This document shows, one piece after another, positions 9,712-58,553 of a stretch of 64,000 bases of DNA (the first letter of the stretch is position 1; every line of letters begins with the position of its first letter). Both the position numbers and the translations under genes were made by a program. The DNA is taken from contig JAIXSQ010000018.1 of assembly GCA_027484575.1 (NCBI GenBank), forward strand, positions 98,700 to 162,699. The letters are read 5' to 3'. The notes under the pieces were generated by a model that worked only from the letters and a program-made list of their open reading frames with translations, did not search any database and was not told where the DNA came from. The stretch is from Comamonadaceae bacterium (lineage in GTDB: Bacteria; Pseudomonadota; Gammaproteobacteria; Burkholderiales; Burkholderiaceae_C).

Positions 9712-9752
9712 GGCGTGTGTCTCCGGTGAGCGATGCGATGCAGCCGGCGTTT

Positions 9753-10466: not shown

Positions 10467-11049
10467 GAAGAACATCGTGATTCTGATCTCGGGCAGCGGC
10501 TCCAACATGGCCGCCATCGCCCAGGCCGCCCGGCGCGACGACTGGGCCGGCCGCCACGGCGCCCGGGTGGCGGCCGTGCTGAGCAACCGCCCGCAGGCCG
10601 CGGGACTGGCCCTCGCCCGCGACCTGGACCTGCCCACGCAGGTGGTGGACCACCAGCAGCACGCCGACCGCGAGGCCTTCGACGCGGCGCTGGCCCGGGC
10701 CATCGACGCGCACCAGCCCTGGCTGGTGGTGCTGGCCGGCTTCATGCGCATCCTCACGCCCGGTTTCGTGCAGCGCTATGCGGGGCGGCTGGTCAACATC
10801 CATCCCTCGTTGCTGCCGGCCTTCCCGGGCCTGCACACCCACCGCCGCGCGATCGAGGCCGGCTGCCGCGTCCACGGCGCCACCGTGCACCAGGTGACCG
10901 CCGAGCTCGACCACGGCCCCATCCTGGACCAGGCCGTGGTGCCGGTGCTGCCCGGCGACACCGAGGCCAGCCTGGCCGACCGCGTGCTCACGCAGGAGCA
11001 CCTGCTGTACCCCCGTGCCATCGAGGCGCTGCTGCGCCGCAAGGACTGA
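10465..11049 (+). CDS. purN: phosphoribosylglycinamide formyltransferase
   Basis: ORF 10375..11049(+), with the start moved to the ATG at 10465 ([15 protein letters not shown]). Also present are [16 protein letters not shown] and HGATVH..T.ELDHGPI. Confidence 0.93.
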
Positions 11050-11052
11050 TTC

Positions 11053-40413: not shown

Positions 40414-41264
40414 CGGGCGGTGAGCTTCGTCTCGAGCGTCTCGTCGCGCGTGAACTTGAAGCGCGAGACCACGACGATCTGGTCGGCCTGCCGGCGCATG
40501 GCCTCGCTGAAGCGGCCGAAGGGGCCGGCGCCGCGGGCGATGCCCTGGGCGCGCCGGTCCAGCGCGGGGTTGCCGGAGCTCTCGACGATCTCGGTGGCCA
40601 GCACCGTGCCGTCGTGGTTGACCGTCACCACCATGGTCAGCTCGCCATACAGCTTCTGCCCCGCTTGCTCGGGGAAGTTGGTGGTGCCGCGGTCCTCGAT
40701 GCGCCGGCGCAGGCCGTCGTAGTAGGTCGCGTAGACCTCCTCGCGGGTGGCAGGGCTGACGTAGCGCTTCTTGGGCCGGGCGTTCTCGGCGTTGATGCGG
40801 CGCTCGATCTCGGCCAGCAGCTGCACCAGCTGGCGGCGCTTGTCCTCGCGGGCCTGCGCCTCGGCGCTGTTGGGTGCCTGCCGCGGGTCGGTGGGCGGCA
40901 TCGCCGCCAGCATCTGCTTGACCTGGGCGAGCATGAGCATCTGCTGCTCCTGCATCGCATCGATCCTCTTGCGCGCATCCTCGTCGGCATCACCTGTGGC
41001 GGTGAGCGCCGCGTAGGGCAGGGGCGAGGTGGCGCGCCCCTTGTCGGCATCGCCGCCGCCGGCCATCGAGGCCTGCGCGATGGCCTGCGCGCGATCGGGC
41101 CGCTCGGTGCTGCGGGCGTTGACCAGCACCACCTCGAGCGGGGTGTCCTGGAACACCCGGTTGAAGCGCTCGGGGTCGACGAAGCGGACCGTCAGCAGCA
41201 CCGCATGCACGGCGACGGAGGCGCCCAGTGCGAGTTGGAGGGTGCTGACCGACTTCAGGTTCAC
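40410..41264 (-). CDS. TonB-family energy transducer-like protein
   Basis: ORF 40410..41264(-) with a GTG start and an N-terminal TM segment. The C-terminal TonB_C-like domain reads GELTMVVTVNHDGTVLATEIVESSGNPALDRRAQGIA. Confidence 0.78.
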   Translation of the reverse strand: MNLKSVSTLQLALGASVAVHAVLLTVRFVDPERFNRVFQDTPLEVVLVNARSTERPDRAQAIAQASMAGGGDADKGRATSPLPYAALTATGDADEDARKRIDAMQEQQMLMLAQVKQMLAAMPPTDPRQAPNSAEAQAREDKRRQLVQLLAEIERRINAENARPKKRYVSPATREEVYATYYDGLRRRIEDRGTTNFPEQAGQKLYGELTMVVTVNHDGTVLATEIVESSGNPALDRRAQGIARGAGPFGRFSEAMRRQADQIVVVSRFKFTRDETLETKLTAR

Positions 41265-43321: not shown

Positions 43322-43355
43322 CGGCCGGATTGTCCCATGGGGGTGCGGCCGGCCA

Positions 43356-43946
43356 TCAGCGCGCCAGGTCGAGGAAGGCCAGCGCCCGGTCCAGGTGGGC
43401 GGCCTCGTAGTCCGACAGGGCGTGGTCGCCGCCTTCCAGCAGCTCGACGGCGCTGCCGGGATAGCGGGCGACCATCTCGCGCCAGTCCAGCACCTCGTCG
43501 CCCTTGGCGACGATGGCCAGCACCCGGCCCGGGTGCGCCAGCGGCCCGGCCTCGAGCGCCTGCAGCTCGTCCACGTGGTGCGGCTCGACCACGAAGCGCT
43601 GGCCGGGGTCGTGCCAGGCCACCTGTTCGCCCAGGTGCCGGCCGATGTCGCGTGCCGCATGCACCGCGGGATTGAGCAGCACCGCCCGGCCGCCGGTGCG
43701 TTGCGCCACCCAGGTCGCGTAGTAGCCGCCCAGCGAGGAGCCGATCACGCCCATGGCATCGCGGGGCCAGCCCGCGATGCCCTGCATCACCAGCGCCATC
43801 GCCTCGCGCGGCGACGGCGGCAGTTGCGGGCACCACCAGGTGACCTCGGGGTGGTCGCGGGCCACGCGCGCGGCGGTCTGCCGTGCCTTGGCCGACTGCG
43901 GCGAGGAGCGGAAGCCGTGCAGGTAGAGCAGGTGGGTGGTGGGCAT
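43356..43946 (-). CDS. yqiA: YqiA-like esterase (UPF0227 alpha/beta hydrolase)
   Basis: These are the last 196 codons of ORF 43356..45062(-), starting at the ATG at 43946 (MPTTHLLYLHGFRSSPQSAKA). The nucleophile elbow is VIGSSLGG. Confidence 0.82.
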   Translation of the reverse strand: MPTTHLLYLHGFRSSPQSAKARQTAARVARDHPEVTWWCPQLPPSPREAMALVMQGIAGWPRDAMGVIGSSLGGYYATWVAQRTGGRAVLLNPAVHAARDIGRHLGEQVAWHDPGQRFVVEPHHVDELQALEAGPLAHPGRVLAIVAKGDEVLDWREMVARYPGSAVELLEGGDHALSDYEAAHLDRALAFLDLAR

Positions 43947-43981: not shown

Positions 43982-44015
43982 AAAAAAAACCCCGCCGGCG
44001 CGAACCGGCGGGGGG
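43982..44015 (-). terminator. orphan rho-independent terminator (minus strand)
   Basis: On the minus strand a CCCCGCCGG-TTCGCG-CCGGCGGGG hairpin is followed by eight T. It lies upstream of the yqiA start, and no annotated minus-strand gene ends here. Confidence 0.55.
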
Positions 44016-44283
44016 AAGACCGGGCAGGCCTGCCGGACCGCCCAGATCAGGGACCTGGCACCAGGCGCGGGGCGCCGTGGCATCGGGTGGGCACGATAGG
44101 CGCGGCCACGGCCGCGGACCATCCGCCGGAAGTCGGACCTGCACGTCACGCCCACCCTCTGCCCTATGACCGATGGTGGATGCGAGCGGGCATCCACTAA
44201 GCTGCGCGCCCGAGCACGGAGGGGCGTCACCGCGCACCACTCCGGCCACCACCGCGGCAGGCACAAGCGGCCGCGCGTGCGTT

Positions 44284-44312
44284 TTGACCCGCTGCGCGTT
44301 GCCCACCACAAT
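44284..44312 (+). promoter_or_regulatory. candidate sigma-70 promoter for the response-regulator/kinase/giant-ORF unit
   Basis: TTGACC (44284-44289), a 17-nt spacer, then CACAAT (44307-44312). AGGAGG and the GTG start at 44334 follow. Confidence 0.4.
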
Positions 44313-44333
44313 CGCGCGCCACAGGAGGAAGCA

Positions 44334-44996
44334 GTGTTCCGGCTCTTGATTTGCGACGACCATCCCGCCATCCGCGTCGGCCTGAGGTCCACGGCCCGGG
44401 CCGCCATCCCGCAGTGCGAGGTCACCGAGGTGGGCAGCGGGGCCGAACTGCTGCAGGTGCTCTCGGGCCCGCAGGCCTTCGACCTGCTGATCCTCGACGT
44501 GAACCTGCCCGACCGCACCGGGCTCGACCTGCTGCCCGAGGTGCGCAGCCAGCGTCCGCAGCTGCACGTGTGGGTCACCTCGGGCGAGCCGAACGAGCAG
44601 TGGATGGCCCAGGCCCTCAATGGCGGCGCCAACGGCTACCTGCCCAAGTCGGTCGACGAGTCGGTGCTCGCGCAGGCACTGCGCGACGCCAGCCAGGGCC
44701 GCATCATCCTGCCGGCCAACTACGTCCAGCGTCCCGCCACCCGGTGGGATCCCGAGCGCGCCCGCAGCGGCGCCGAGCAGGTGCTCGCCCGCCTGGGGCT
44801 CACCCCGCGCCAGCGCGACGTGCTCACCTGCATCCTGCGGGGCCAGTCGAACAAGCAGATCGCGCGCGCCCTGGACATCTCCGACGGCACGGTGAAGACG
44901 CACACCGCGGCGATCTTCAACGCGCTGGGCGTCAACAGCCGGGCCAACGTGATCGTCAAGTGCAGCAGCCTGGGAATCCCGCTCGGTGGACACTGA
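44334..44996 (+). CDS. NarL/LuxR-family response regulator
   Basis: Part of ORF 44166..44996(+), starting at GTG 44334 after AGGAGG. The REC domain reads LLICDDHP...LLILDVNLPDRTG. The LuxR HTH reads LTPRQRDVLTCILRGQSNKQIARALDISDGTVKTHTAAIF. Confidence 0.9.
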   Translation: MFRLLICDDHPAIRVGLRSTARAAIPQCEVTEVGSGAELLQVLSGPQAFDLLILDVNLPDRTGLDLLPEVRSQRPQLHVWVTSGEPNEQWMAQALNGGANGYLPKSVDESVLAQALRDASQGRIILPANYVQRPATRWDPERARSGAEQVLARLGLTPRQRDVLTCILRGQSNKQIARALDISDGTVKTHTAAIFNALGVNSRANVIVKCSSLGIPLGGH

Positions 44997-46662
44997 GGCC
45001 CTGAAGCGGGAGACCACCTCGCTGGCCCTGCAACAGGCCATCGCCTCCGGCCGCTGGGCCATCCCCGCCGGGCTCGTGATCCTCGCGCTCGTGGCGCCCC
45101 AGGTCGGCTACCTGCCGGCGGCCATCGGGGGGGTGGTGCTGGCGACCTGCCTGGCCGTGCGCAACGTGGTGCTGCAGCGCACCCTGGCCCGGATGGGGCG
45201 GGCGCAGCAGGGCGTGCGCGCACTGCTGGTGACCACCACCGGGCTGGGCCTGCTGCTCGGCCTGCTGCCCGCACTGGCCTTCGCGCGCCTGAACGAAGGC
45301 TCCCAGCTGCTGCTGACCATGGTGCTGTGCGTCTGGGCGACCGCCGCGGTGCTGTCCTCGGGCCTGTCCGCATCGGTCTACGGCGGCTACCTCGCGGCGG
45401 TGATGGGCGGGCTGGCGGTGGCCTGGTCGCTCCACGGGCAGGCGAGCGTCGGCCACCTCATGGCGGCCGGGGTGATCCTGTACGGCCTGACGCTGTTCGC
45501 CTTCTCGGTGCACTTCTCGCGCCGCATCGCCGACTCGATCGCGATCCGGGCGGAGAACGCGCAGCTGGTGCGGCAGCTCGCGTCCGCCAACGATGCCAAG
45601 ACCCGCTTCCTGATGGCCGCCAGCCACGACCTGCGCCAGCCGCTGCACGCCCTGGGCCTGATGAGCGCCGGCCTGCTGCGCATGCAGGACCCGCAGGAGA
45701 TCCGCCAGCTGTCCCAGACGCTGGCCGGCTCGGTGCAGAACCTCAACCAGCTGTTCTCGTCCATCCTCGACATCTCGCGCCTGGACAGCGGCGACCTGCG
45801 CGTGAACCTGACCACCTTCAGTCTCGACGCGCTGGTGGCGCAGCTGGACACCGAGTACAGGGCGCTGTGCCTGGCGGCCGAGCGGCGCTGGGAATGCCAG
45901 CTCGAGAGCGTCAGCGTGCGCTCCGACCCGGTGCAGACCGAGCGCTTGCTGCGCAACCTGCTCGACAACGCGCTCAAGCACGGCGGCCGGGGAGCCATCC
46001 GCCTGTCGATCGCCCGCGATGGCGACCAGGCCGTGGTGACCGTGGCCGACACCGGCCCGGGCATCCGGCCCGAGGAGCGCGAGCGCGTGTTCGACGAGTT
46101 CTACCGCAGCGGCAGCAGCGGCCTCGGCCTGGGCCTGTCGATCGTCAAGCGGCTGGCCGACAAGCTCGGCGCGCAGCTCAGGCTGGACTGGACCGACCCG
46201 GCGCATGCGCTGGGGGCGCGCTTCACGGTCCGCCTGCCGGCGGCGCCGGCGGGCGTCGCGCCCGAGGTCATGGACGAGCCCGACGTGGACCTCGCCGGGC
46301 TGTCGGTGCTGGTGCTCGACGACGACCCCAGCATCCTGCAGGCGACCCGCACGCTGCTGCGCAGCTGGGGCTGCCGCGTGGCCACCTGCGCGGGCGCCCA
46401 CGAGCTCGAGACGGCCATGGAACGGCTCGGCGAGGCCGACGTCGCGCTGGTCGACTACCAGCTCGACGGGGGGGAGGTCGGCCCCGAGGTGATCGCCAGG
46501 GCGCAACAGGCCTGGCCCGGCATGAGCACGCTGATCGTCACGGGAGAATCCGACCCGGCACGGCTGGAGCAGTTGCGCGACATGGCGTTCGTGCTGACCA
46601 AGCCGCTGTCGCCTGAGACCTTGCGGCGCGCGCTGGCGGGCGTGCGCAGCGCGGCCAACTGA
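44986..46662 (+). CDS. hybrid sensor histidine kinase (multi-TM sensor, HisKA, HATPase, C-terminal REC)
   Basis: 558 aa with about 5-6 N-terminal TM helices. The H-box is FLMAASHDLRQPLHAL. The N/G boxes are NLLDNALKHG and DTGPGI...GLGLGLSIV. The receiver is VLVLDDDPSI...VDYQLDGG...TKPL. Confidence 0.9.
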   Translation: MDTEALKRETTSLALQQAIASGRWAIPAGLVILALVAPQVGYLPAAIGGVVLATCLAVRNVVLQRTLARMGRAQQGVRALLVTTTGLGLLLGLLPALAFARLNEGSQLLLTMVLCVWATAAVLSSGLSASVYGGYLAAVMGGLAVAWSLHGQASVGHLMAAGVILYGLTLFAFSVHFSRRIADSIAIRAENAQLVRQLASANDAKTRFLMAASHDLRQPLHALGLMSAGLLRMQDPQEIRQLSQTLAGSVQNLNQLFSSILDISRLDSGDLRVNLTTFSLDALVAQLDTEYRALCLAAERRWECQLESVSVRSDPVQTERLLRNLLDNALKHGGRGAIRLSIARDGDQAVVTVADTGPGIRPEERERVFDEFYRSGSSGLGLGLSIVKRLADKLGAQLRLDWTDPAHALGARFTVRLPAAPAGVAPEVMDEPDVDLAGLSVLVLDDDPSILQATRTLLRSWGCRVATCAGAHELETAMERLGEADVALVDYQLDGGEVGPEVIARAQQAWPGMSTLIVTGESDPARLEQLRDMAFVLTKPLSPETLRRALAGVRSAAN

Positions 46663-46718
46663 ACGACGGACACACAAGCGGGTGCCGGCGCTGGCAGCGC
46701 CGGCCAGGGGGAGAACAC

Positions 46719-49700
46719 ATGGGATGGTTGTCGCGGCCGGCCGAGGAACTGCTGGCCGGCGCCGGGGCAGGGCAGACCTTGGACGTGCTGGTTGCGGGCT
46801 CGGGCTACGGCGGGGCGGTGGCGGCCTTGCGGCTGGCCCAGGCCGGCCGTCGCGTGACGGTCGTCGAACGCGGCCAGGAGTTCCAAGCCGGTGAGTTCCC
46901 GTCCCAGGTCGGCGAGATCGGCACCCGGATGCGGGTGGAGCTGAGCGACGCGCAGGGCGTGCGGGCGATGGGGCAGGAATCGGCCCTGTTCGACTTCCGC
47001 GTGGGCGACGGCGTGGCCGCCATGGTGGGCAACGGCCTGGGCGGCGGCAGCCTGGTGAACGCGGGCGTGGGCGTCGAGGCCGACCCGCGGGTGTTCACCG
47101 AATCCGGCTGGCCGCAGGCCCTGCGCGAGGGGCTCGGTCCCTGGTACGCCCGGGCGCGCGAGACCCTCGAACTGCAGCGCCCCGACGGGCCGGAGGCCGG
47201 CGTCGCCGGCCAGCGGATCGTGGGCTCGGCCAAGTACGCGGCCTTGCGGCGCTTCGCCGAGCAGTCCGGCGGCCGCTTCGAGGTGGCCGACATCGCGGTG
47301 GAGCTGCGCGACGCGCCGCCGCAGGCGCTGGGCCGCCGCGCGCCCTGCAACGGCTGCGGCGACTGCGTGACCGGCTGCAACCACCACGCCAAGCTCAGCC
47401 TGACCGCCACCTACCTGCCGCGCGCGTTCCAGGCCGGGGCCCGCCTCTACACCGGCCTGACCGTGCTGGCGGTCGAACCGCTGCCCGCCGGCGCCGCCGA
47501 CGGCGCGTGCTGGGCGGTGCACTGCGTGCGCACCGGCGAGCGCGCCGACCTGGCGGCCGGGGTGCCCGCCGCGGGCCTGGTGCAGGTGTTGCGGGTTCGC
47601 ACGGTGGTGCTCGCGGCGGGCGCCTTCGGCTCCACCGAGATCCTCGCGCGGTCGCAGGCCCGCCACGGCCTGCCACTGGCCGCGGCGCAGTTGGGCCGGC
47701 GCGTGTCCACGAACGGCGACGACATCGCGCAGGGCTGGGACCTGCCCCACCCGGTGCATGCGGTCGGCGCTGGCGCGGCCCCCGTGCACACCTTCACCGG
47801 CCCGACCATCACCGGCATCGTGCGGCTGGGCGAGCCGTCCGGCCCGCTGCAGCAGCAGACCGTGGTCGAGGACGGCGCGGTGCCCGGCCTGCTGGGCACC
47901 TTCGCCGCCGAACTCGGCGCCGCGTTGTCGCTGCTGCCCCGGCTGGCAGGGGCCGGCTGGCCCCGCGGCGCTGCACGCGACCCGATGGCGGCCAGCCCCG
48001 ACGCGCTGCGGCGCAGCCTGACGCTGCTGGGCATGGGGCACGACAGCGCCGGCGGCGAACTGGCCTGGGAGCCGCGCGGGGGCCGGCTGCGCTGGCGCTG
48101 GGTCGGCGAGCCCGAGCCGCTGGCCCAGGTCCACGGCACCCGCCAGCAGGCGATCGCCGCCGACGGCGGCGTCTTCCTGCCCAACCCCGGCACCAGCCTC
48201 GGGCTGGAGGCCTTCGGCGTCGCCACGCCGGCGGCCATGCGCCGGCTGATCACGGTGCACCCGCTGGGCGGCTGCCGGATGGGCGATGGCCCCGACAGCG
48301 GGGTGGTGGACCATGTGGGCACCGTCTTCCATGCCGACGGCAGCCGCCTGGAGGGCCTGCACGTGCTGGACGGCTCCATCGTGCCGTCGCCGCTGGGCGT
48401 CAACCCGCTGCTCACCATCACGGCGCTGGCCGAGCGCGCCTGCGCGTGGATGGTGGGCCACGGCGAAGGCGCGGTGCCGGGCGAGGCCGCCCCGCCCGCG
48501 CGTGACCTGCCCCGGCCCGAGGCGCTGCCGCCCGAGCACCGCATCCCGGTCGTGCAGCCGCTGGGCGGCACGCTGGCCGAGGTGCTGCGCGGCGATCTCG
48601 TGGCGCAGGGCCAGGGCCTGCCGGGCTCGGGCGCCCGCACCGGCGCGGCGCTCTTCCTGCGCTTCCCGGTCCCGTCGTGGCGCGACCTGATGGCCGACCC
48701 GGCGCACCGCGCCGAGGTGGAGCCCGGCGACGTGCCGGGCAGCCCCTACGACCGGTCGCGGCTCGTGCTGGACCTGCCGGGCGGCACCGTCAGCTGGCCG
48801 GTGCTGGCCGGCAGCCATGCGGCCGTCTTCCGCGCCAGGCCGCTGGGACCCCTGGCCCGGCTGGACACGACCGTCCGCCTGGGGTTGCGCGCGTGGATCG
48901 ACACCGGCTGGCCCCTGCTGCACAGCCGCGGCACCGGGGGCCTGCGCCATGCCTGGCGCGGCCTGCGCCTGTACGCGCGCACGCTGGCCAACGCGACCGA
49001 GGTGCGCGAGTTCGTGTACACGCTGCGGTTGCAGGGCCCTGGCGGCGACTGGTCGCTGGCGGGCCTGAAGACCATCGATGCGGCGCCCGGCTGGCCCGCG
49101 CTGCGGCACTGGCTGGCGCACTGGGGACGCGCCCGGCTGCGGCAGCTGGTGGGCGGTCCGCGTGCACCCTGGCCGGCCGTCGAGGCCCCCAGCCTCTGGA
49201 CGCAGATGACCGAGGCGCAGGTGCAGTTGCGCGACCCGCAGGGCCGGCTGTGTGCCCAGGGGCGCGTCGCCATGGACGTGGCCGACGTCGCCCGGCACCT
49301 CACGCCGCAGCTGGGGGAGGAGGGCGACAGCCTGCAGGCCTTGCAGGCCTTCGCGGCCTACCCGCTGTTCATCGCCCGCGTGCTCGCGCGCAACCGCCTG
49401 CTGCTGTGGTTGCGCGGGCCGGCCCTGCTGCCCGGGCTGCCGGCCACCGACCCGGCCACCGGCCCCGCCGGATCGGGCGGCGGCTTCATCGACGAGGCGG
49501 ACGCCTGGCCGGCGCTGCAGGTGGGCGGCCGCACCCATCCGGCCTTGCGCCATGTGCTGCCGGTGCGGCAGGCGCCGGGCGTGCAGGCGCGCATTCCGGT
49601 CTGCCTGGTGCGCTACCGGCCTGCCGGCGGCGTGCCGCAGGTGCAGCCCTGCACGCGCTGGGGGCGCCAGCGCGTGCGCAGCATCGTCCTGCTCAACGGC

Positions 49701-52700
49701 TTCGCCCAGAGCTCGCACGGCCTCACCGCCCTGGGCGCCCTGGGCGAGCAGGACCTGGTGCGGCAGCTGCTCGCCGAGGGCTGGGACGTGTGGGTGCTGG
49801 AGTACCGGGTCAGCCCGCTGCTGCGCGCCTCGGCCCGCATGGCCAGCATGGACGACATCGCCGAGTACGACCTGCCCGCCGCCATCCGCCACGTGCGCGC
49901 GGTCGTCGAGCAGGAGTGCGGCCTGCCCGAGCGGTCCAGCCAGGTGCATGCGTTCAGCCACTGCGTCGGGTCGGCCTCGCTGGCGATGTCGATCCTGGGC
50001 GGGCACCTCGCAGACCCGCCCGCGCAGGCAGGCGGGGTGCCGGTGCCCTGGCTGGCCGGCGTGCTGCTGTCGCAGTTCCATCCCATCGTGGTCGGTTCGG
50101 CCAGCGCGCAGCAGCGGCTGCAGATGGGCAGCCTGCTGCACGACGTGCTGGGCCGCGAACTGCTGCAGTTCACCGCGGGCACGGCGCGCCCCGACGCGCT
50201 GCATGCCGCGCTCGACCGCCTGTTCATGCAGCTGCCCTGGAAGGACTGGGGCGACACGCACGGCGGCCCCGACCCCGTGCCCGGCGAGCATTGCGGGCCG
50301 GCCGACGACGACCTGCTGGACCCCAGCCCCGAGGCCACGACCTGCCGCCGCATGGGCGGCATCCTCAGCCGCCTGTACAACCACGCGCAGCTGGGCGCGC
50401 TGCACGGCCGGCTGGACGAGTTCTTCGGCCGCGCCAACCTGGGCGTGTTCCTGCACGGCACGCGCTGCGTGCAGTACGAGCGGCTGGTCAACGCGCAGGG
50501 CCAGGACGTCTACGTGACCGGCCGCCGCATCGGCCGCTACCTCACCATGCCGGTGATGCTGCTGCACGGCCGTGACAACGCGCTGTTCGACCGCGAGTCG
50601 CTGCAGCGCGCGGCCCTGCAGCTGGCCCGCGGCGCGCACGACCCCGCCGGCGACGCCCCCGGGCCGCCGGCGGTGGTCTGCCACGGCGTGGCCGGATTCG
50701 CGCACTTCGACTGCACGGTGGGCCGCGAGGCGCCGCAGCGCATCCTGCAGCCCGTGGCGCGCTTCTTCGATGCGGCCTTCCGCGACGGCGGCCAGCCGCC
50801 CGCCGGCAGTGCCGACTGGCCCGTGGTGCGCACCCGTTCGGCACCGCGCACGCTGGGCCGCCTGCCACGCACCGGGCCGATCGCCGGCTGGACCCGCCGC
50901 GCGTCGCAGGGCGGCTGGCTCCTGCGTCTGTGGTTCGAGGCCGACCTCACCGCCGGGGACCGCGCGCTGTGCGGCATCACCCGCCTGTGCTGGACGCAGG
51001 GTGGGCAGCGGCACGAGCGCGTGCAGACCTGGGACCTGCATTTCTCCGAGCCGCTGGCCGAGCCGGGCAGCGACCACGGCCCGCGTCGCGACACGCTGCT
51101 GCGGCAGGTGTCGATCGGCTACGCGCTGGCCGACCTCGAACTGCCCGAGGGCGCGCAGGACGTGGCAGTGCAGGCGCTGACGGTGCATGCCCTGCAGGGC
51201 CGCTTGCCGGCGGCCGCGCACGCCGCGGCCATGGCACCGCTGCTGCCGCCCGGCTGGTCGACGCCGCTGCACCCGGCCGAGACCGCGCCGGAGCTCGAGC
51301 TGCTGCGCTGGCCCGACGGGCGCGACCTGCGGCGCTGGCTGGTGCCGCAGCCGCAACCCCATCCCGCCGACGCGCAGCGGCCCCGCTACCGCGCCCGGCG
51401 CCAGGAGGACATGGACGAGCGGCTGCCGCACCGCATCCTGCCGGTCGAGACGCTGGAGCCGCTGCTGTTCGCCACCCTGTGGGACGCGGTGCAGGCACAG
51501 GCACGGCGCCAGGATGCGCGGGCCCGGCAGGCCGACCCGCGGACCTTGTCGCGGCGCCGGCGCCAGCTGGCCACGCCCGACGCCGGCTGGCTGCGCTGGA
51601 CGCCGCCGGCATCCGATGCCGCCCCCGGCCTGCGCATGCTGGCGGCAGCCTGCCGCTACCCCGGCGTGGTCGAGGCCGAGCGCGCGCGGGCCGACCTGTC
51701 GCTGTGGCAGGCGGCGCGCCTGGCCCCCGGTGCCCGCTTCATGGCCCTGCTGGGGGACCAGATCTATGCCGACGCGCGGGCCGGCCTGTTCGACGGCGCC
51801 TCCGAGGTGGAGCGGCTGGTGCCGCGGTACCGGGGCGCCTTCGGCTCACCGGGCTTCCGCGCCGTGGCGGCGCGGCTGCCGATTGCGATGGTGCTGGACG
51901 ACCATGAACTGGACGACAACTGGAGCCTGGACCACCTGGCCCTGCCCGGGGGCGCGCTGCGGCAGCGCAATGCGCTGCGCGCGTACCACGCGTTCCAGCG
52001 GGCGCACGGGTCGGCCGTGCCGTCCAACGGCACCGGCGATGCCTACCTCGAGCACGATGGCATCCACGTGCTGTTCGTCGACAGCCGCACGGGCCGGCGG
52101 CGGCGCGGCGAGCGCTGCATCCTGCAGGAGGTCCAGTGGGCCTCGCTCGACGCGGCGCTGGCGCAGGCGGTGCACACCCGGCCGGGCATGCCGGTGGTGA
52201 TCTGCACCGGCTCGGTGGTGGCCCCTGGCGTGCGCGAGGGCGATGCGCAGCCGCCGCCGCGCGACACGCTGGACACCTGGCAGCTGGCGCCGCAGGACCG
52301 CGCGCGCCTGCTGGGACTGCTGGTGCAGCACCGCGTCGAGCGGGCGGTGCTGCTGTCGAGCGACTACCACTGCAGCACGCTGGCCACGCTCACGCTGCCT
52401 GGCGGCCTGTCGGTGCGGGCGATCACCACGCCGCCGCTGCACGCGCCGCTGCCGTTCGCGAACCTGCGGCCACGCGAGTTGCTGCTGCACGAGCGGATCC
52501 CGCTGGGTCCGCTGGGCGAGGCACAGGTGCGGCTGGACTGGGCGGCCGAGGGCGATGGCGTGCTGGACCTGGGCCTGGAGCCGACCGCCGGCGGCGGCTG
52601 GATGCTGCGCACCAGCTTCTGGCTGCGGCGCATGGACGGGCCCACGCCCGACACGCACCTGGAGGTGGTGCGGCGCTGTCAGCTGGGCTCGGACGCGGCC

Positions 52701-52754
52701 TGGGGGGAGCCGGCGCCGGCCGTGGACGAGCTGCGCTTCTTCGCCAAGGCGTAG
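46719..52754 (+). CDS. 2011-aa multidomain protein: GMC (cholesterol-oxidase-like) flavoprotein + alpha/beta-hydrolase + PhoD-like metallophosphatase
   Basis: A single uninterrupted ORF with GGGGGAG upstream. N-terminal FAD fold VLVAGSGYGGAVAALRLAQAG; CNGCGDCVTGCNHHAKLS; GMC C-terminus HPLGGCRMG...LHVLDGSIVPSPLGVNPLLTITALAER. The middle domain has LLNGFAQSS...VHAFSHCVGSAS. The C-terminal domain has GPIAGWT...LWFEAD, LLGDQIYAD, VLDDHELDDNW and LLSSDYH. Confidence 0.85.
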   Translation: MGWLSRPAEELLAGAGAGQTLDVLVAGSGYGGAVAALRLAQAGRRVTVVERGQEFQAGEFPSQVGEIGTRMRVELSDAQGVRAMGQESALFDFRVGDGVAAMVGNGLGGGSLVNAGVGVEADPRVFTESGWPQALREGLGPWYARARETLELQRPDGPEAGVAGQRIVGSAKYAALRRFAEQSGGRFEVADIAVELRDAPPQALGRRAPCNGCGDCVTGCNHHAKLSLTATYLPRAFQAGARLYTGLTVLAVEPLPAGAADGACWAVHCVRTGERADLAAGVPAAGLVQVLRVRTVVLAAGAFGSTEILARSQARHGLPLAAAQLGRRVSTNGDDIAQGWDLPHPVHAVGAGAAPVHTFTGPTITGIVRLGEPSGPLQQQTVVEDGAVPGLLGTFAAELGAALSLLPRLAGAGWPRGAARDPMAASPDALRRSLTLLGMGHDSAGGELAWEPRGGRLRWRWVGEPEPLAQVHGTRQQAIAADGGVFLPNPGTSLGLEAFGVATPAAMRRLITVHPLGGCRMGDGPDSGVVDHVGTVFHADGSRLEGLHVLDGSIVPSPLGVNPLLTITALAERACAWMVGHGEGAVPGEAAPPARDLPRPEALPPEHRIPVVQPLGGTLAEVLRGDLVAQGQGLPGSGARTGAALFLRFPVPSWRDLMADPAHRAEVEPGDVPGSPYDRSRLVLDLPGGTVSWPVLAGSHAAVFRARPLGPLARLDTTVRLGLRAWIDTGWPLLHSRGTGGLRHAWRGLRLYARTLANATEVREFVYTLRLQGPGGDWSLAGLKTIDAAPGWPALRHWLAHWGRARLRQLVGGPRAPWPAVEAPSLWTQMTEAQVQLRDPQGRLCAQGRVAMDVADVARHLTPQLGEEGDSLQALQAFAAYPLFIARVLARNRLLLWLRGPALLPGLPATDPATGPAGSGGGFIDEADAWPALQVGGRTHPALRHVLPVRQAPGVQARIPVCLVRYRPAGGVPQVQPCTRWGRQRVRSIVLLNGFAQSSHGLTALGALGEQDLVRQLLAEGWDVWVLEYRVSPLLRASARMASMDDIAEYDLPAAIRHVRAVVEQECGLPERSSQVHAFSHCVGSASLAMSILGGHLADPPAQAGGVPVPWLAGVLLSQFHPIVVGSASAQQRLQMGSLLHDVLGRELLQFTAGTARPDALHAALDRLFMQLPWKDWGDTHGGPDPVPGEHCGPADDDLLDPSPEATTCRRMGGILSRLYNHAQLGALHGRLDEFFGRANLGVFLHGTRCVQYERLVNAQGQDVYVTGRRIGRYLTMPVMLLHGRDNALFDRESLQRAALQLARGAHDPAGDAPGPPAVVCHGVAGFAHFDCTVGREAPQRILQPVARFFDAAFRDGGQPPAGSADWPVVRTRSAPRTLGRLPRTGPIAGWTRRASQGGWLLRLWFEADLTAGDRALCGITRLCWTQGGQRHERVQTWDLHFSEPLAEPGSDHGPRRDTLLRQVSIGYALADLELPEGAQDVAVQALTVHALQGRLPAAAHAAAMAPLLPPGWSTPLHPAETAPELELLRWPDGRDLRRWLVPQPQPHPADAQRPRYRARRQEDMDERLPHRILPVETLEPLLFATLWDAVQAQARRQDARARQADPRTLSRRRRQLATPDAGWLRWTPPASDAAPGLRMLAAACRYPGVVEAERARADLSLWQAARLAPGARFMALLGDQIYADARAGLFDGASEVERLVPRYRGAFGSPGFRAVAARLPIAMVLDDHELDDNWSLDHLALPGGALRQRNALRAYHAFQRAHGSAVPSNGTGDAYLEHDGIHVLFVDSRTGRRRRGERCILQEVQWASLDAALAQAVHTRPGMPVVICTGSVVAPGVREGDAQPPPRDTLDTWQLAPQDRARLLGLLVQHRVERAVLLSSDYHCSTLATLTLPGGLSVRAITTPPLHAPLPFANLRPRELLLHERIPLGPLGEAQVRLDWAAEGDGVLDLGLEPTAGGGWMLRTSFWLRRMDGPTPDTHLEVVRRCQLGSDAAWGEPAPAVDELRFFAKA

Positions 52755-53578
52755 GCGGTCGCCACCAGCAGCTGGGTCAGGCCGTAGAGGCCTGCGATGG
52801 CCGCCACGTCGAGACGGCCCAGCACGCCGATGGCGATGCCCAGCGCGATGGAGACGTTCTGCACGCCGGTCTTGAGCGCCAGCGTGGTGCGCTGCGCGGC
52901 GGCCAGGCCGCACGCCGCGGCCAGCAGGCCGCCGATGGCCAGCGCCGCCGCGTTGGTGCCCAGCAGCGGGAGCGCGGCGCCGGTGGCGGCCGTGGCGAGC
53001 AGCTTCCACTGCGACGCGACCGCGCCCAGCAGCAGCACGACGAACAGGATGCCGGCCAGCTTGCCCAAGGCCGGCCGGATGCGCTCGGCCAGCGCGTGGT
53101 GTCGGCGCTGCAGCCACAGCCCGGCCAGCAGCGGCGCCACCACCATCACCAGCAGGCTCTGGAACACGGCCAGGGGGGTGACCACCTGGATCCCCTGGCC
53201 GGTCGTGGCCTGCAGCAGGCTGGGCAGCGCCAGCGGCATGACGGCCGCCGACAGCAGGGTGCCGATCACCGTGAGCAGCAGGGCCAGGGCGACGTCGCCG
53301 CGCGCCACGTGCGTGAGGTAGTTGGAGGTCGGGCCGCTGGGGGTCAGCGACACCAGGCACAAGGCGGTCAGCAGCACCGGATCGCGGACGAGGCCGGACA
53401 GGGCCAGCGCCAGCACGATGCACGGCACCACCGCCAGCTGGACCGCCAGCCCCGCCACCAGGGGGCGGCCCCCTTCCACGGCGCGCCGGAAATGCTCCGG
53501 CTGCAACTGGATGCTGATCGACAAGGTCAGCACGCCCACGGCCACCTGGATCGCCAGCGCTGCGAGCCCTTCGCTCAT
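52679..53578 (-). CDS. bile acid:sodium symporter (BASS/SBF) family transporter
   Basis: ORF 52679..53692(-), with the start moved to the ATG at 53578 (MSEGLAALAIQVAVGV). It is polytopic and carries LVSLTPSGPTSNYLTHVARGDVAL and TLALKTGVQNVSIAL. The last 76 nt overlap the 3' end of the giant ORF on the other strand. Confidence 0.82.
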   Translation of the reverse strand: MSEGLAALAIQVAVGVLTLSISIQLQPEHFRRAVEGGRPLVAGLAVQLAVVPCIVLALALSGLVRDPVLLTALCLVSLTPSGPTSNYLTHVARGDVALALLLTVIGTLLSAAVMPLALPSLLQATTGQGIQVVTPLAVFQSLLVMVVAPLLAGLWLQRRHHALAERIRPALGKLAGILFVVLLLGAVASQWKLLATAATGAALPLLGTNAAALAIGGLLAAACGLAAAQRTTLALKTGVQNVSIALGIAIGVLGRLDVAAIAGLYGLTQLLVATAYALAKKRSSSTAGAGSPQAASEPS

Positions 53579-53672
53579 CCCGATCTCCCCGCTCAGTGTT
53601 CTTGGCGCGGCAGTGTAACGACGGGGTTGCGAGCACGACCGCAAGCCCCCATGGGCGACAATGGCGCCCGCC

Positions 53673-54827
53673 ATGTCCGCCGTCTTCGACAAGCCGCCCC
53701 TGTGGAAGCGCGCCGCGCCCCTGCTGCGGGGCTACGACGGCCCGCTGGCCTTCGCCGTGTTCCTGCTCGCCTGTGCTGGCCTGCTGGCCATGTACTCGTC
53801 GGGCTTCGACCACGGCACCCGCTTCGTCGACCACGGCCGCAACATGCTGATCGCCGGCACCATCATGTTCGTGGTCGCCCAGATTCCGCCGCAGCGCCTG
53901 ATGAGCCTGGCCGTGCCGCTCTACACCCTGGGCGTGGCGCTGCTGATCGCGGTGGCCCTGTTCGGCATCGCCAAGAAGGGCGCGCGGCGCTGGGTGAACA
54001 TCGGCGTGGTGATCCAGCCCAGCGAGATCATGAAGATCGCCATGCCGCTGATGCTGGCCTGGTGGTTCCAGCGCCGCGAGGGCCAGCTGCGGCCGCTCGA
54101 CTACGTGGTGGCCGGCGTGCTGCTGGCCGTGCCGGTCGGCCTGATCATGAAGCAGCCCGACCTGGGCACCTCGCTGCTGGTGATGGCCGCCGGCCTGTCG
54201 GTGATCTTCTTCGCCGGCCTGTCCTGGAAGCTCATCATCCCGCCCGTGGTCGTGGGCCTCGTGGGCATCCTGCTGCTGGTGGTGTTCGAGTCGCAGCTGT
54301 GCGCGCCGGGCGTGAACTGGCCCGGGCTGCACGACTACCAGCAGCAGCGCGTGTGCACCTTGCTGGACCCCACCAAGGACCCGCTGGGCAAGGGCTTCCA
54401 CATCATCCAGGGGATGATCGCCATCGGCTCGGGCGGCCTGTTCGGCAAGGGTTTCATGCAAGGCACGCAGACGCACCTGGAGTTCATCCCCGAGCGCACC
54501 ACCGACTTCATCTTCGCCGCCTACTCCGAGGAGTTCGGGCTGATGGGCAACCTGTTCCTGATCGCCGGCTTCACCTTCCTGATCCTGCGCGGCATGGCCA
54601 TCGCGCTGGAGGCGTCGTCGCTGTTCGCGCGGCTGATGGCCGGGGCGGTGACGATGATCTTCTTCACCTATGCCTTCGTGAACATGGGCATGGTCAGCGG
54701 CATCCTGCCCGTGGTGGGCGTGCCGCTGCCCTTCATCAGCTACGGCGGCACCGCCATGGTCACGCTGGGGCTCGGCCTGGGCATCCTGATGTCCATCGCC
54801 AAGGCCAAGCGGCTGGTGCAGACGTGA
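53673..54827 (+). CDS. rodA: rod-shape-determining peptidoglycan glycosyltransferase RodA (SEDS family)
   Basis: ORF 53661..54827(+). The start is probably the ATG at 53673 (MSAVFDKPPLWKR). SEDS motifs: QPSEIMKIAMPL, FIPERTTDFIFA, PLPFISYGGTAM. Confidence 0.92.
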   Translation: MSAVFDKPPLWKRAAPLLRGYDGPLAFAVFLLACAGLLAMYSSGFDHGTRFVDHGRNMLIAGTIMFVVAQIPPQRLMSLAVPLYTLGVALLIAVALFGIAKKGARRWVNIGVVIQPSEIMKIAMPLMLAWWFQRREGQLRPLDYVVAGVLLAVPVGLIMKQPDLGTSLLVMAAGLSVIFFAGLSWKLIIPPVVVGLVGILLLVVFESQLCAPGVNWPGLHDYQQQRVCTLLDPTKDPLGKGFHIIQGMIAIGSGGLFGKGFMQGTQTHLEFIPERTTDFIFAAYSEEFGLMGNLFLIAGFTFLILRGMAIALEASSLFARLMAGAVTMIFFTYAFVNMGMVSGILPVVGVPLPFISYGGTAMVTLGLGLGILMSIAKAKRLVQT

Positions 54828-55699
54828 GCGGGACCGTCGCGGTCGTCGGCGCCGGCAACATGGGCGGGGCGATGGCGCGGCGGCTGCTGGGCCTGGGCTG
54901 GACCGTGCGGGTGCGCGACGTCGACCTGCCGACCGCGCAGGCGCTGGGCGCGTCGGGCGCCGTGGTCTGCGCCAGCCCGGCCGAGGCAGCCCGCGGCGCT
55001 GGGGCTCTCGTGGTGGCGGTGGTCGACGCGGCGCAGGTGCGCGAGGTGCTGTTCGGCGCCGCCGGCGCAGCCACCGCGCTGCCCGCCGGGGCGCCGGTGC
55101 TGCTGTGCCCGACCATCGGTCCCGGCGACTGCGAATCGATCGCTGTCGCGCTGGCCGAGGCCGGCCTGCAGCCGGTCGATGCGCCCATGTCGGGCGGCCC
55201 GCAGCGGGCGCTCGACGGCAGCATGAGCCTGATGGTCGCCTGTCCCGACCGGGCCTGGGACAACGCGTTGCCGCTGCTGCAGGCCCTGAGCGACCGGCTC
55301 GTGCGCGTGGGCACGCGCTGGGGTGACGGCGCGCGGACCAAGCTGGTCAACAACCTGCTCGCCGGCATCAACCTGGTGGGTGCGGCCGAGGCGCTGGCCC
55401 TGGCGCGCCGGCTGGGCCTGGACGGCGCCCGCACGCTCGAGGTGATCGCGCAGTCCAGCGGCCAGAGCTGGATCGGCAGCGACCGCCTGCCGCGCGCGCT
55501 CGCCGGCGACCTGGCGCCCCGTGCCCACCTGTCGCTGCTGCGCAAGGACACCGGCCTGGCGATCGAGGCCGCCGAGGCCGCGGGCTTCCGCGGCCCGCTG
55601 GGTGCGGCCGCCCGCGACGTGTTCGCCCAGGCCGCCGATGCGGGCCTGGCCGGGCTCGACGACGCCGTGCTGCTGCGCTGGATCGAGCAGGGCGGCTGA
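54824..55699 (+). CDS. NAD(P)-dependent beta-hydroxyacid dehydrogenase family oxidoreductase
   Basis: In-frame part of ORF 52136..55699(+), starting at GTG 54824 (GTGA overlap with the rodA stop). The Rossmann motif is VAVVGAGNMGGAMARRL. DAPMSGG and TKLVNNLL are also present. Confidence 0.85.
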   Translation: MSGTVAVVGAGNMGGAMARRLLGLGWTVRVRDVDLPTAQALGASGAVVCASPAEAARGAGALVVAVVDAAQVREVLFGAAGAATALPAGAPVLLCPTIGPGDCESIAVALAEAGLQPVDAPMSGGPQRALDGSMSLMVACPDRAWDNALPLLQALSDRLVRVGTRWGDGARTKLVNNLLAGINLVGAAEALALARRLGLDGARTLEVIAQSSGQSWIGSDRLPRALAGDLAPRAHLSLLRKDTGLAIEAAEAAGFRGPLGAAARDVFAQAADAGLAGLDDAVLLRWIEQGG

Positions 55700-55761
55700 G
55701 CCGCGCGGGGCAGGCAGCCCCTGCGCCCCGCCGGCCTTCGGGGCGCACCTAGAATCGCCCG

Positions 55762-57222
55762 ATGATCTCCCGCGAACCCACCCTCGAGCGCCTCGCCACG
55801 GCGCAGCGCCTGCTGCTCGAACCGTTCGGCCTCGACGAATCGCACCTGTCGCGCGCCCTGGCCGAGATCCGTGCGCACAAGGTCGACGACGCCGACCTCT
55901 ACTTCCAGTACACGCGCAGCGAGGGCTGGAGCCTGGAGGAGGGGATCGTCAAGACCGGCAGCTTCAGCATCGACCAGGGCGTGGGCGTGCGCGCGGTCAG
56001 CGGCGAGAAGACCGCCTTCGCGTATTCCGACGACATCTCCGAGGCCTCGCTGCTCGATGCGGCGCGCACCGTGCGTGCCATCGCCGGTGCCAACCAGTCG
56101 GGCCGCACGCGCGTGTCGCCCAAGAAGGTCGCGGGCAGCCGCTCGCTCTACCCGGACCTCGATCCCATCGGGACGCTCGACAGCACCGCCAAGGTGGCAC
56201 TGCTCGGCCAGGTCGAGCAGGCCGCGCGCGCCAAGGACCCGCGCATCGTGCAGGTGATGGCCGGGCTGGCCAGCGAGTGGGACGTGGTCATGGTCGCGCG
56301 CGCCGACGGCACGCTGGCCGCGGACGTTCGGCCGCTGGTGCGGCTGTCGGTCACCGTGATCGCCGAGCAGAACGGCCGGCGCGAGATGGGCTCGGCCGGC
56401 GGCGGCGGGCGCTTCGGCCTGGCGTACTTCGACAGCCACCACATCCAGTCGTATGTCGACGATGCGGTGCGCTCGGCGCTGACCAACCTCGAATCGCGCC
56501 CGGCGCCCGCCGGCGAGATGACCGTGGTGCTGGGCCCGGGCTGGCCCGGCATCCTGCTGCACGAGGCGGTGGGCCATGGCCTGGAGGGCGACTTCAACCG
56601 CAAGGGCTCCAGCGCGTTCTCCGGCCGCATCGGCCAGCGCGTGGCGGCCAAGGGCGTGACCGTGCTCGACGACGGCACCATCGCCGACCGCCGCGGCTCG
56701 CTGAACGTCGACGACGAGGGCAACGCCAGCCAGCGCAACGTGCTGATCGAGGACGGCATCCTGCGCGGCTACATCCAGGACGCGCTCAACGCGCGGCTGA
56801 TGGGCGTCAAGCCCACCGGCAACGGCCGGCGCGAGAGCTACGCGCACGTGCCCATGCCGCGCATGACCAACACCTACATGCTCGGTGGCGACAAGAGCCC
56901 CGACGAGATCGTGGCCAGCATCAGGAAGGGCCTGTACGCGACCAACTTCGGCGGCGGCCAGGTCGACATCACCTCGGGCAAGTTCGTGTTCTCGGCCAGC
57001 GAGGCCTACTGGGTCGAGAACGGCAAGATCCAGTACCCGGTCAAGGGCGCGACCATCGTGGGCAACGGCCCCGACGCGCTGACCCGCGTGAGCATGATCG
57101 GCGACGACATGAAGCTCGACACCGGCGTGGGCACCTGCGGCAAGGAAGGCCAGAGCGTGCCGGTCGGCGTGGGCCAGCCCACCCTGCGCATCGACGGCCT
57201 GACCGTCGGCGGCACGGCTTGA
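55762..57222 (+). CDS. tldD: metalloprotease TldD
   Basis: ORF 55762..57222(+), 486 aa. It has HEAVGHGLEGD and the C-terminal GTCGKEGQSVPVGVGQPTLRI. Confidence 0.95.
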   Translation: MISREPTLERLATAQRLLLEPFGLDESHLSRALAEIRAHKVDDADLYFQYTRSEGWSLEEGIVKTGSFSIDQGVGVRAVSGEKTAFAYSDDISEASLLDAARTVRAIAGANQSGRTRVSPKKVAGSRSLYPDLDPIGTLDSTAKVALLGQVEQAARAKDPRIVQVMAGLASEWDVVMVARADGTLAADVRPLVRLSVTVIAEQNGRREMGSAGGGGRFGLAYFDSHHIQSYVDDAVRSALTNLESRPAPAGEMTVVLGPGWPGILLHEAVGHGLEGDFNRKGSSAFSGRIGQRVAAKGVTVLDDGTIADRRGSLNVDDEGNASQRNVLIEDGILRGYIQDALNARLMGVKPTGNGRRESYAHVPMPRMTNTYMLGGDKSPDEIVASIRKGLYATNFGGGQVDITSGKFVFSASEAYWVENGKIQYPVKGATIVGNGPDALTRVSMIGDDMKLDTGVGTCGKEGQSVPVGVGQPTLRIDGLTVGGTA

Positions 57223-57257
57223 CGGCACGCCAAACCCCTGTGGTAGAGTCTTTCGTC

Positions 57258-57338
57258 ATGCGCAAGCAGTCCGTCTTCTTCTTTGGCTACTTTTGGTTCT
57301 CCGGCCCGTCGGCGGTCGAGAGCCCGGAGCGCACCTAG
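57258..57338 (+). CDS. aromatic-amino-acid-rich leader peptide (26 aa)
   Basis: ATG 57258 to TAG 57338 encodes MRKQSVFFFGYFWFSGPSAVESPERT. Seven of eight consecutive codons (57276-57299) are Phe, Tyr or Trp. It is followed by an intrinsic terminator and then the DAHP synthase gene. Confidence 0.6.
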   Translation: MRKQSVFFFGYFWFSGPSAVESPERT

Positions 57339-57363
57339 ACAAGACGCACCAGGACACTCGAAG

Positions 57364-57394
57364 AAACCGCCGGCTCCCACCGGCGGTTTTTTTT
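57364..57394 (+). terminator. intrinsic terminator / attenuator between the leader peptide and aroG
   Basis: AAACCGCCGG-CTCCCA-CCGGCGGTTT hairpin running into eight T, 44 nt upstream of the aroG ATG. Confidence 0.7.
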
Positions 57395-57437
57395 CGCCCC
57401 TGCCACCCCCAGACCCCATCCCGTTCAGGAGCCCACG

Positions 57438-58553
<1,116 letters not shown>

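Follow-up and report, generated by a model that had tools for sequence, protein, structure and literature searches.

A conserved signal-less protein combines a GMC flavoenzyme, a lipase-like hydrolase and a PhoD-like module, and its gene recurs next to membrane sensors

We have analyzed a stretch of 64,000 nucleotides (nt) of DNA from a Comamonadaceae bacterium (contig JAIXSQ010000018.1), called the window below, in which an open reading frame (ORF) at positions 46719-52754 encodes a genuine and conserved five-domain enzyme. From the N terminus, the protein includes a GMC oxidoreductase, a family-specific beta-rich domain, a lidded alpha/beta-hydrolase, a PhoD-N-type beta-sandwich and a PhoD catalytic domain. 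Judging from its sequence, it is nearly certain that this is a real, conserved and catalytically competent multi-enzyme. Known folds are here combined in an uncharacterized way, and the architecture itself is already in public databases, where the three-way fusions are named "alkaline phosphatase D family protein" or "GMC oxidoreductase." The unusual features of the family are a GMC domain with four cysteines, a hydrolase with a cysteine nucleophile, a PhoD module without signal peptide, a private middle domain and a recurrent sensor neighbor. We propose, with a probability of roughly 0.45, that the enzyme handles a phospholipid-like molecule in the cytoplasm, by deacylation, phosphoester cleavage and alcohol oxidation.

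Results

A single gene encodes the whole protein

The gene at the center of this study is the following.

46719..52754, + strand: five-domain enzyme gene; whole ORF including the stop codon, ATG start, 2011 amino acids (aa).

A Shine-Dalgarno sequence, GGGGGAGA, is found 6 nt 5' of the ATG. The G+C content of the window is 72-78%, and long ORFs are therefore open in several frames. One of them, antisense to the enzyme gene (46455..51431, 1658 aa), failed the codon-position test and is spurious. Since a G+C content of 75-78% yields long ORFs of this kind, one could think that two or three genes were falsely joined in the ORF studied here. This explanation is effectively refuted. The G+C content at third codon positions (GC3) of the frame is 0.95 overall and 0.91-0.99 per 100-codon window, and the frame is unchanged throughout. 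The region 44100-53800 is contained in one contig in each of 4 independently assembled freshwater-metagenome runs (depth 20-30x), with 0 differences and 0 gaps. Furthermore, the homology search revealed >100 homologues of 1900-2150 aa, with 30-85% identity and alignments spanning 97-100% of the query. The uniform GC3, the identical assemblies and the end-to-end homologues exclude a frameshift, a stop codon or an assembly artifact. The initial annotation, which was made from the sequence alone, had described a single uninterrupted ORF of 2011 codons, and the splitting stop or collapsed frameshift that it had contemplated is absent from the four assemblies. The gene has a higher G+C content (75-78%, in 46500-53000) than its flanks (68-73%). 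Lysine makes up only 0.2% of the protein, versus 9.8% for arginine. This composition could result from a composition-driven bias or from a separate history.

Full-length homologues of about 2000 aa are found in Burkholderiales and in some Gammaproteobacteria. The three-way fusion described in the initial annotation thus exists, with >100 homologues, but it is not unique, since it belongs to a conserved family already in the databases. We found no signal peptide, Tat or RR motif, and no transmembrane (TM) or hydrophobic segment in the enzyme protein, in which the motif binding flavin adenine dinucleotide (FAD) begins at residue 27. The absence of signal and Tat peptides noted earlier is therefore borne out, and without a signal peptide the enzyme is most likely cytoplasmic.

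Domains were delimited by searching the PDB sequences with a profile built from 28 family members, and with AlphaFold2 (AF2) models made from family alignments and compared by Foldseek. The family profile was essential, because the PhoD and hydrolase segments, when used as single sequences, returned nothing usable from the PDB. The AF2 model of aa 930-2011 (predicted local distance difference test, pLDDT, 84; predicted template modeling score, pTM, 0.87) comprises a lidded alpha/beta-hydrolase, a beta-sandwich and a metallophosphatase core. The GMC, alpha/beta-hydrolase and PhoD assignments of the initial annotation all hold at the family level, its boundaries fall within about 40 residues of those derived here, and all the motifs it quoted are present. 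The domains and sites are as follows.

46719..48458, + strand: GMC flavoenzyme domain, class-I cholesterol-oxidase-like, aa 1-580 (Pfam and PDB profile).
47346..47378, + strand: C210-x2-C213-x2-C216-x3-C220, putative iron-sulfur (Fe-S) site (conservation and spacing).
48486..49538, + strand: family-specific middle domain, aa 590-940 (AF2 and conservation).
49551..50828, + strand: alpha/beta-hydrolase, aa 945-1370, with a helical lid of about 150 aa (profile, AF2 and Foldseek).
49962-49964, + strand: nucleophile C1082 in F-S-H-C-V-G-S.
50703-50705, + strand: catalytic histidine H1329.
50841..51638, + strand: PhoD-N-type beta-sandwich (aa 1375-1494), disordered insert and helical connector (AF2).
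51639..52751, + strand: PhoD-type metallophosphatase catalytic domain, aa 1641-2011 (Pfam, profile and Foldseek).

The flavoenzyme domain and its four cysteines

The N-terminal domain matches Pfam GMC_oxred_N (40.5 bits, cut-off 23) and GMC_oxred_C (50.2 bits, cut-off 24.6). Its best sequence matches are cholesterol oxidases, such as Streptomyces ChoA (1B4V) and that of Brevibacterium (1COY), the former being the top GMC match of the family profile in the PDB (1b4v, E 1.7e-47). They share with the enzyme the FAD motif GxGxxG, the catalytic histidine (YHPLGG) and the asparagine (GVNPxxTITALAER). None of 28 homologues departs from the FAD motif G27-S-G-Y-G-G or from H514 and N562, and in the alignment H514 and N562 correspond to the YHPLGG histidine and the GVNP asparagine, i.e., to the catalytic pair of cholesterol oxidase. 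Yet, the enzyme differs from these proteins in having an invariant CxxCxxCxxxC motif, in not being secreted and in being joined to four more domains. The substrate-binding middle of the GMC domain (aa ~356-490) fails to align with solved cholesterol oxidases, and the NCBIfam equivalog model for the cholesterol oxidases ChoA/ChoB (NF058674) gave 157.3 bits, far from its cut-off of 850.

All four cysteines of the motif are kept in 89/89 related loci. Cholesterol oxidases lack it, having S-G-L-G-G-E-V-I-Y-G-N-N where the enzyme has C-N-G-C-G-D-C-V-T-G-C-N. In the catalytic subunit of the FAD-dependent glucose dehydrogenase (FAD-GDH) of Burkholderia cepacia, C212, C218 and C222 are the ligands of a 3Fe-4S cluster (PMC6719666). 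C210, C216 and C220 have the same C-x5-C-x3-C arrangement at nearly equal residue numbers, a correspondence of numbering and spacing and not of alignment, and the FAD-GDH-type spacing is also present in a loop preceding an A-K/M motif. FAD-GDH alpha (6A2U) and fructose dehydrogenase thus likewise combine a GMC fold with a cysteine cluster, although the similarity between FAD-GDH and the enzyme is weak (1.1e-8) and involves the FAD motif only. The enzyme further differs by its fourth cysteine, C213, which makes the motif the classical CxxCxxCxxxC and would complete a full 4Fe-4S-type motif, and by lacking a Tat hitchhiker subunit and a cytochrome gene at the locus. Matches of the cysteine motif to ferredoxins are weak (E 0.1-0.2 in a short-peptide search). 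Given these patterns of conservation and spacing, the GMC domain probably holds an Fe-S cluster. If so, the module would work as a dehydrogenase, handing its electrons to an acceptor other than O2.

A private middle domain

The initial annotation had regarded the next ~400 aa as an unassigned linker. This region is instead a folded and conserved domain, modeled as a beta-sheet or barrel with long helices (pLDDT 84, pTM 0.77), which is moderately conserved overall and has invariant R763, Y767, R887, P901 and P908. It seems to be specific to the family. Foldseek found no PDB match below E 1e-3 (the top one was DynF, 6ubl, at 9e-3), and among 1.84 billion representatives searched with phmmer, none credibly showed the domain in a second architecture at E<1e-10, the matches below this value being family proteins, fragments and one probably spurious match to a multi-stretch repeat.

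A hydrolase with a cysteine nucleophile

The family profile matches gastric (2e-8) and lysosomal (5e-6) acid lipases over the segment between strand 3 and the nucleophile. The enzyme protein itself has no match to Pfam Abhydrolase models even at E<=1, but some homologues match Abhydrolase_1 (PF00561). Together with the structural matches of the AF2 model, these results support the alpha/beta-hydrolase assignment. The modeled topology has the canonical strand order, with C1082 straight after b5 and H1329 after b8 (pLDDT 84), and Foldseek retrieved many alpha/beta-hydrolases at E<1e-6, including StnA, monoacylglycerol lipases and PhaC at E 1e-8 to 1e-7, as well as acetyltransferases. The nucleophile is not a serine but C1082, which is invariant (56/56), as are H1329 and D1331 (56/56 each). 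The canonical acid position is occupied by an asparagine, N1287 (55/56), leaving D1331 and D1291 (44/56) as candidates for the acid. Monoacylglycerol lipases and PhaC likewise have a lidded fold, a nucleophile elbow after b5 and a histidine after b8, and PhaC also uses a cysteine. The enzyme differs from them in its S/A-H-C-x-G elbow, in the asparagine at the acid position and in the invariant aspartate 2 residues past the histidine. The nucleophile cysteine is kept in shorter GMC-hydrolase proteins of Bacteroidota, Actinobacteria, Acidobacteria, Nitrospirota and Myxococcota.

A PhoD module with a complete set of metal ligands

The C-terminal domain matches Pfam PhoD (PF09423; 44.7 bits, cut-off 27) and the PhoD structure 2yeq, both with the profile (E 2.6e-19) and with Foldseek (2.7e-14 over 702 aligned columns), which also retrieved purple acid phosphatases. 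Ten metal ligands have been defined in the active site of PhoD (PMC5768637, PMC4223295). All ten are present here: C1645, D1680, Y1683, D1727, D1728, H1729, D1733, N1734, D1882 and H1884. Eight of them are conserved in 56/56 sequences and the other two are conservatively substituted. Bacillus subtilis PhoD (2YEQ) and the Streptomyces chromofuscus phospholipase D have the same fold, the same N-terminal beta-sandwich and the same ten Fe3+/Ca2+ ligands, including the cysteine and the tyrosine. In contrast to them, the enzyme lacks a Tat signal, is apparently cytoplasmic and contains a Pro/Arg-rich insert of about 45 residues (~aa 1525-1570) that is predicted to be disordered (pLDDT <50 at residues 596-640 of the model fragment). 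Conservation is lowest at aa 1521-1600. The module belongs to a distinct signal-less subfamily, whose members are fused to, or encoded beside, lipase-type proteins. We found 1663 stand-alone members of this subfamily at E<1e-10. The stand-alone relatives, like the enzyme, have no signal peptide, in contrast to typical PhoD, which has a Tat signal and is extracytoplasmic.

The same activities recur in shorter, split and replaced forms

The fusions of GMC and hydrolase that had been suspected in the initial annotation exist as proteins of about 1140 aa, with GMC, middle and hydrolase domains, and are widespread across phyla. Among 28 loci of this short family, 11 have a neighboring metallophosphoesterase gene (PF00149) and 8 have one for a membrane-anchored, di-haem, RoxA-like cytochrome c. 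Electrons from the putative Fe-S cluster may be accepted by this cytochrome. In several related loci (L028, of a Pseudomonas sp., at 4965-11696, and L018, L060, L066, L077 and L080), the short GMC-hydrolase gene forms a conserved trio with genes encoding an N-terminally anchored RoxA-like di-haem cytochrome c of ~630 aa and a PF00149 protein of ~430 aa. The Pseudomonas trio lies between genes for electron transfer flavoprotein (ETF) and a gene for a Rieske oxygenase. We considered whether the PF00149 neighbor could be an orthologue of the PhoD module. It has no pairwise similarity to the PhoD domain, suggesting non-orthologous replacement rather than fission, and hence that a phosphoesterase was recruited more than once.

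In Thiosulfatimonas, Photobacterium and Methylophaga, the protein is split: a signal-less PhoD-like gene (561-563 aa) is immediately 5' of a GMC-hydrolase gene (1141-1151 aa). These PhoD-like proteins have the motifs of the enzyme (CRYPG, GDQIYAD, DDHEIxDNW and SGD(I/Y)HCS). In two further genomes, a Lipase_3 gene comes after a gene of this PhoD-like subfamily. Overall, 5/6 examined contexts of the subfamily are paired with an acyl-ester hydrolase; only the copy of Chromobacterium is unpaired, and it has a gene of the PF04185 phospholipase C family nearby. A lipase-type acyl-ester hydrolase is the constant companion of the PhoD-like module. A small gene of the glyoxalase/VOC family adjoins the PhoD-like or the GMC-hydrolase gene in loci L090 (6458-6811) and L091 (12330-12692), the former being also close to genes for a CCP_MauG di-haem peroxidase and a PF04185 phospholipase C-family protein.

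A membrane sensor is encoded upstream

The enzyme gene is the third of a same-strand unit, after genes for a response regulator and a histidine kinase. The features of the unit and the gene facing it are given here.

44284..44312, + strand: sigma-70-like candidate promoter TTGACC-17-CACAAT (consensus scan, 1 match versus 0.1 expected).
44334..44996, + strand: LuxR/GerE-type response regulator with receiver (REC) and helix-turn-helix (HTH) domains (Response_reg 1.2e-21, GerE 1.2e-17).
44986..46662, + strand: hybrid histidine kinase, HisKA-HATPase-REC (Pfam and hydropathy).
Convergent on the 3' end of the enzyme gene: gene of the SBF (bile-acid/Na+ symporter) family.

The candidate promoter is just 5' of a Shine-Dalgarno sequence (AGGAGGA) and of the GTG at 44334, which is the probable start of the regulator, rather than the ATG at 44166 of the mechanically called ORF. 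The 44166-44333 portion would make the latter 56 codons too long at the 5' end, with an Arg/His-rich extension, and orthologues of the regulator have 207-240 aa. The kinase has 5-6 TM helices within its first 180 aa and no periplasmic domain. PADLOC models of anti-phage defense matched neither the enzyme nor the kinase.

We then compared 27 distinct loci encoding the PhoD-containing enzyme, from Comamonadaceae, other Burkholderiales, Nevskiales, Salinisphaerales, Hahella and a Pseudomonadales metagenome-assembled genome. A gene for a polytopic sensor is directly 5' of the enzyme gene in 24/27 loci, whereas the other flanking genes vary. This linkage had not been noticed in the initial annotation. 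The sensor is a hybrid histidine kinase on the same strand in 20/27 loci and a 7TMR-DISM protein with degenerate GGDEF and EAL domains in 4/27 (L002, at 5455-7974, L006, L011 and L048), none of which has a canonical GGDEF. In the protein of L002, the GGDEF is degenerate (...HADQF...) and the EAL is intact; from these motifs, the 7TMR-DISM partner is probably a phosphodiesterase only, acting on cyclic di-GMP (c-di-GMP). We rejected a homology between the TM domain of the kinase and the 7TMR-DISM domain (hhalign probability 0.15). The arrangement brings to mind the DesK-DesR-Des system of B. subtilis, which is a membrane-fluidity circuit. It also includes a multi-TM kinase without extracellular domain, a LuxR/NarL-type regulator and a gene for a lipid-modifying enzyme. 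However, the kinase found here is a HisKA-type hybrid with a receiver, unlike DesK, and the enzyme is unrelated to the desaturase.

Discussion

What could such an enzyme do? We directly observe the ORF, its domains, the conservation of its catalytic residues and the gene linkage, and from these we infer the cofactors, the substrate, the order of the reactions, the metals, the electron acceptor and the regulatory logic. The substrate would be a phospholipid-like molecule, on which the enzyme would act from the cytoplasmic side of the inner membrane. Its hydrolase would strip an acyl chain using the Cys-His pair, via a thioester acyl-enzyme on C1082, its PhoD module would cut a phosphodiester or a phosphomonoester with an Fe/Ca-type ligand set, and its GMC module would oxidize the exposed alcohol in an FAD/Fe-S-dependent reaction. 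The gene would be transcribed with those of the LuxR-type regulator and of the hybrid kinase, for which the membrane domain would be the only input. The enzyme would then probably be the output or the partner of a circuit sensing the state of the membrane, either controlled by this state or feeding back to it.

The recurrence of fused, split and replaced forms argues that the three activities serve one pathway, and the gene neighborhoods favor a lipid with acyl-ester and phosphoester bonds as the substrate. The initial annotation had suggested a cytoplasmic multi-enzyme acting on a lipid, possibly a sterol or a hopanoid. The single, signal-less protein and its neighborhood speak for the first part, as an acyl-ester/phosphoester lipid, while the sterol or hopanoid specificity is unsupported. 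Precedents exist for phosphoesterases acting on phospholipids. PlcP is intracellular. It is an enzyme of phospholipase C type that remodels membrane lipids and is called a metallophosphoesterase in the title of a reference (PMC9239053, PMC4796936). The phospholipase D of S. chromofuscus is a member of the PhoD family (PMC4223295). Taken together, these precedents support an action on phospholipids, and so do the presence of monoacylglycerol lipases among the nearest hydrolase folds and the profile matches to acid lipases. The parallel with PlcP, which acts on the cell's own phospholipids, extends to the short family, which pairs with a PF00149 gene. It has its limits, since the enzyme belongs to another branch of the superfamily and its locus has neither an agt-type glycosyltransferase gene nor a Pho box.

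Several points weigh against the phospholipid model. To our knowledge, all PhoD enzymes characterized to date work outside the cytoplasm, after export, and depend on Ca2+, of which the cytoplasm contains little. Our searches of the literature on this combination of domains gave no relevant paper on the family. The asparagine at the canonical acid position implies an atypical catalytic machinery in the hydrolase, and acyl transfer instead of hydrolysis is possible, since the structures nearest to the modeled domain include acyltransferases and PhaC. The window and the loci of the long family contain no gene for a cytochrome c subunit or for a small subunit with a Tat signal, and no electron acceptor for the putative Fe-S cluster is apparent in this locus. 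The search for Pho boxes returned 0 matches versus 2.2 expected, which does not support control by PhoB and gives no hint of regulation by phosphate starvation. Finally, the SBF transporter was considered as a partner and discarded, since its gene is absent in Ramlibacter, Caenimonas, Variovorax and Rhodoferax.

The linkage with sensors could have a different meaning, in which the enzyme processes the ligand of the adjacent membrane sensor, or serves as its sensing arm, within a three-component system. More precisely, it could make, destroy or present a molecule detected by the 5-6-TM kinase or by the 7TM-EAL protein. In favor of such a role, the sensor gene is immediately 5' and on the same strand in 24/27 loci, and the type of output swaps between HK-REC and degenerate-GGDEF/EAL among close relatives of the enzyme. 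An EAL protein is unable to serve as a transcription factor for the enzyme gene, and the input of the kinase consists of membrane helices only. But linkage in an operon is not by itself proof of physical contact or of coupling through a ligand, no homology was detected between the TM domains of the two sensor types (see the hhalign result above), and the short and split forms mostly lack sensor neighbors. We consider this reading unlikely, though credible. At the other extreme, the domains could have been fused by chance and act on unrelated substrates, the protein being a general cytoplasmic phosphodiesterase of organophosphates or nucleotides. This would fit the proximity of the PhoD fold to cyclic-nucleotide phosphodiesterases of the Rv0805 type in Foldseek and the neighboring signaling genes, including those for EAL proteins. 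We find it improbable, because three activities that recur fused, split and non-orthologously replaced point to one pathway and because the PhoD-specific set of Cys/Tyr ligands is fully retained.

Other lipids were also considered as substrates. The GMC domain could oxidize the 3-hydroxyl of a sterol-like lipid, whose ester or phosphate substituents would be cleaved off by the other domains. Class-I cholesterol oxidases are indeed the closest solved structures and the best NCBIfam match, there is a profile match to lysosomal acid lipase/cholesteryl ester hydrolase, and a gene of the bile-acid/Na+ symporter family is convergent at the 3' end in the window. Yet, the equivalog score of 157 versus 850 bits, the unaligned substrate-binding middle and a four-cysteine motif foreign to true cholesterol oxidases all contradict this specificity, the SBF neighbor is missing in the genera listed above, and there are no sterol or hopanoid genes near the locus. 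A sterol or hopanoid substrate is therefore quite improbable. We are slightly more doubtful still of a role in polyester or acyl-transfer metabolism, with an alpha/beta domain resembling a synthase or an intracellular depolymerase of polyhydroxyalkanoate (PHA), active on hydroxyacyl thioesters or oligomers, and a GMC domain oxidizing the hydroxyl end. Burkholderiales commonly store polyhydroxybutyrate, the invariant cysteine lies in a PhaC-like G/S-x-C-x-G elbow, and Foldseek matched Aeromonas PhaC (E 1.5e-7) and acetyltransferases. However, lipase-type structures fit better (TMt 0.6-0.68 versus 0.38 for PhaC), no pha genes are nearby, and the phosphodiesterase would be left without a role, even though the linkage to a phosphoesterase is the most conserved feature.

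The action on a phospholipid-like molecule, which we favor, has a bolder extension: the giant enzyme and the polytopic sensor could form an undescribed circuit of membrane-lipid homeostasis, where a specific phospholipid of the inner leaflet is edited and the product, or the altered bilayer, is read directly by the sensor. We regard this extension as rather unlikely. If true, it would couple lipid turnover to transcription or to c-di-GMP, and the family would provide the first PhoD enzymes of the cytoplasm and, among GMC enzymes of the cholesterol-oxidase-like type, the first to bear an Fe-S cluster.

These results may have consequences for the use of PhoD in ecology. PhoD genes are widely used as markers of the mineralization of extracellular organic phosphorus. 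The 1663 signal-less relatives and the >100 fusions are linked to lipases and, most likely, reside inside the cell. Part of the PhoD marker signal would then have to be reinterpreted. The family would also provide a cytoplasmic route of phospholipid breakdown beside PlcP, and it would add a clade of cholesterol-oxidase-like flavoenzymes with a four-cysteine, Fe-S-type motif and a lipase-like hydrolase with a cysteine nucleophile. Its recurrent pairing with membrane sensors could be a tractable handle on how Burkholderiales sense or adjust the composition of their membranes.

Surroundings of the locus

The 3' ends of the enzyme and SBF genes overlap by 76 bp (52679-52754), and the same overlap is found in a relative with 85% identity (locus L004). 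The flanks of the unit (38846-43660 and 53661-58553) share their gene order with Ramlibacter algicola and a JGI metagenome contig (L003/L004), a synteny that points to a host in the Burkholderiales near the Comamonadaceae. They encode a transglycosylase, shikimate dehydrogenase, TonB and an RNase II-type RNB protein on one side, and FtsW/RodA, TldD/PmbA and DAHP synthase on the other. The gap that separates the regulator gene from the minus-strand genes upstream contains a strong terminator-like hairpin (43990-44013, - strand), with a stem of 10 bp including 9 GC pairs and a T8 tail, which by synteny with L004 would be located just 5' of the start of the UPF0227 gene.

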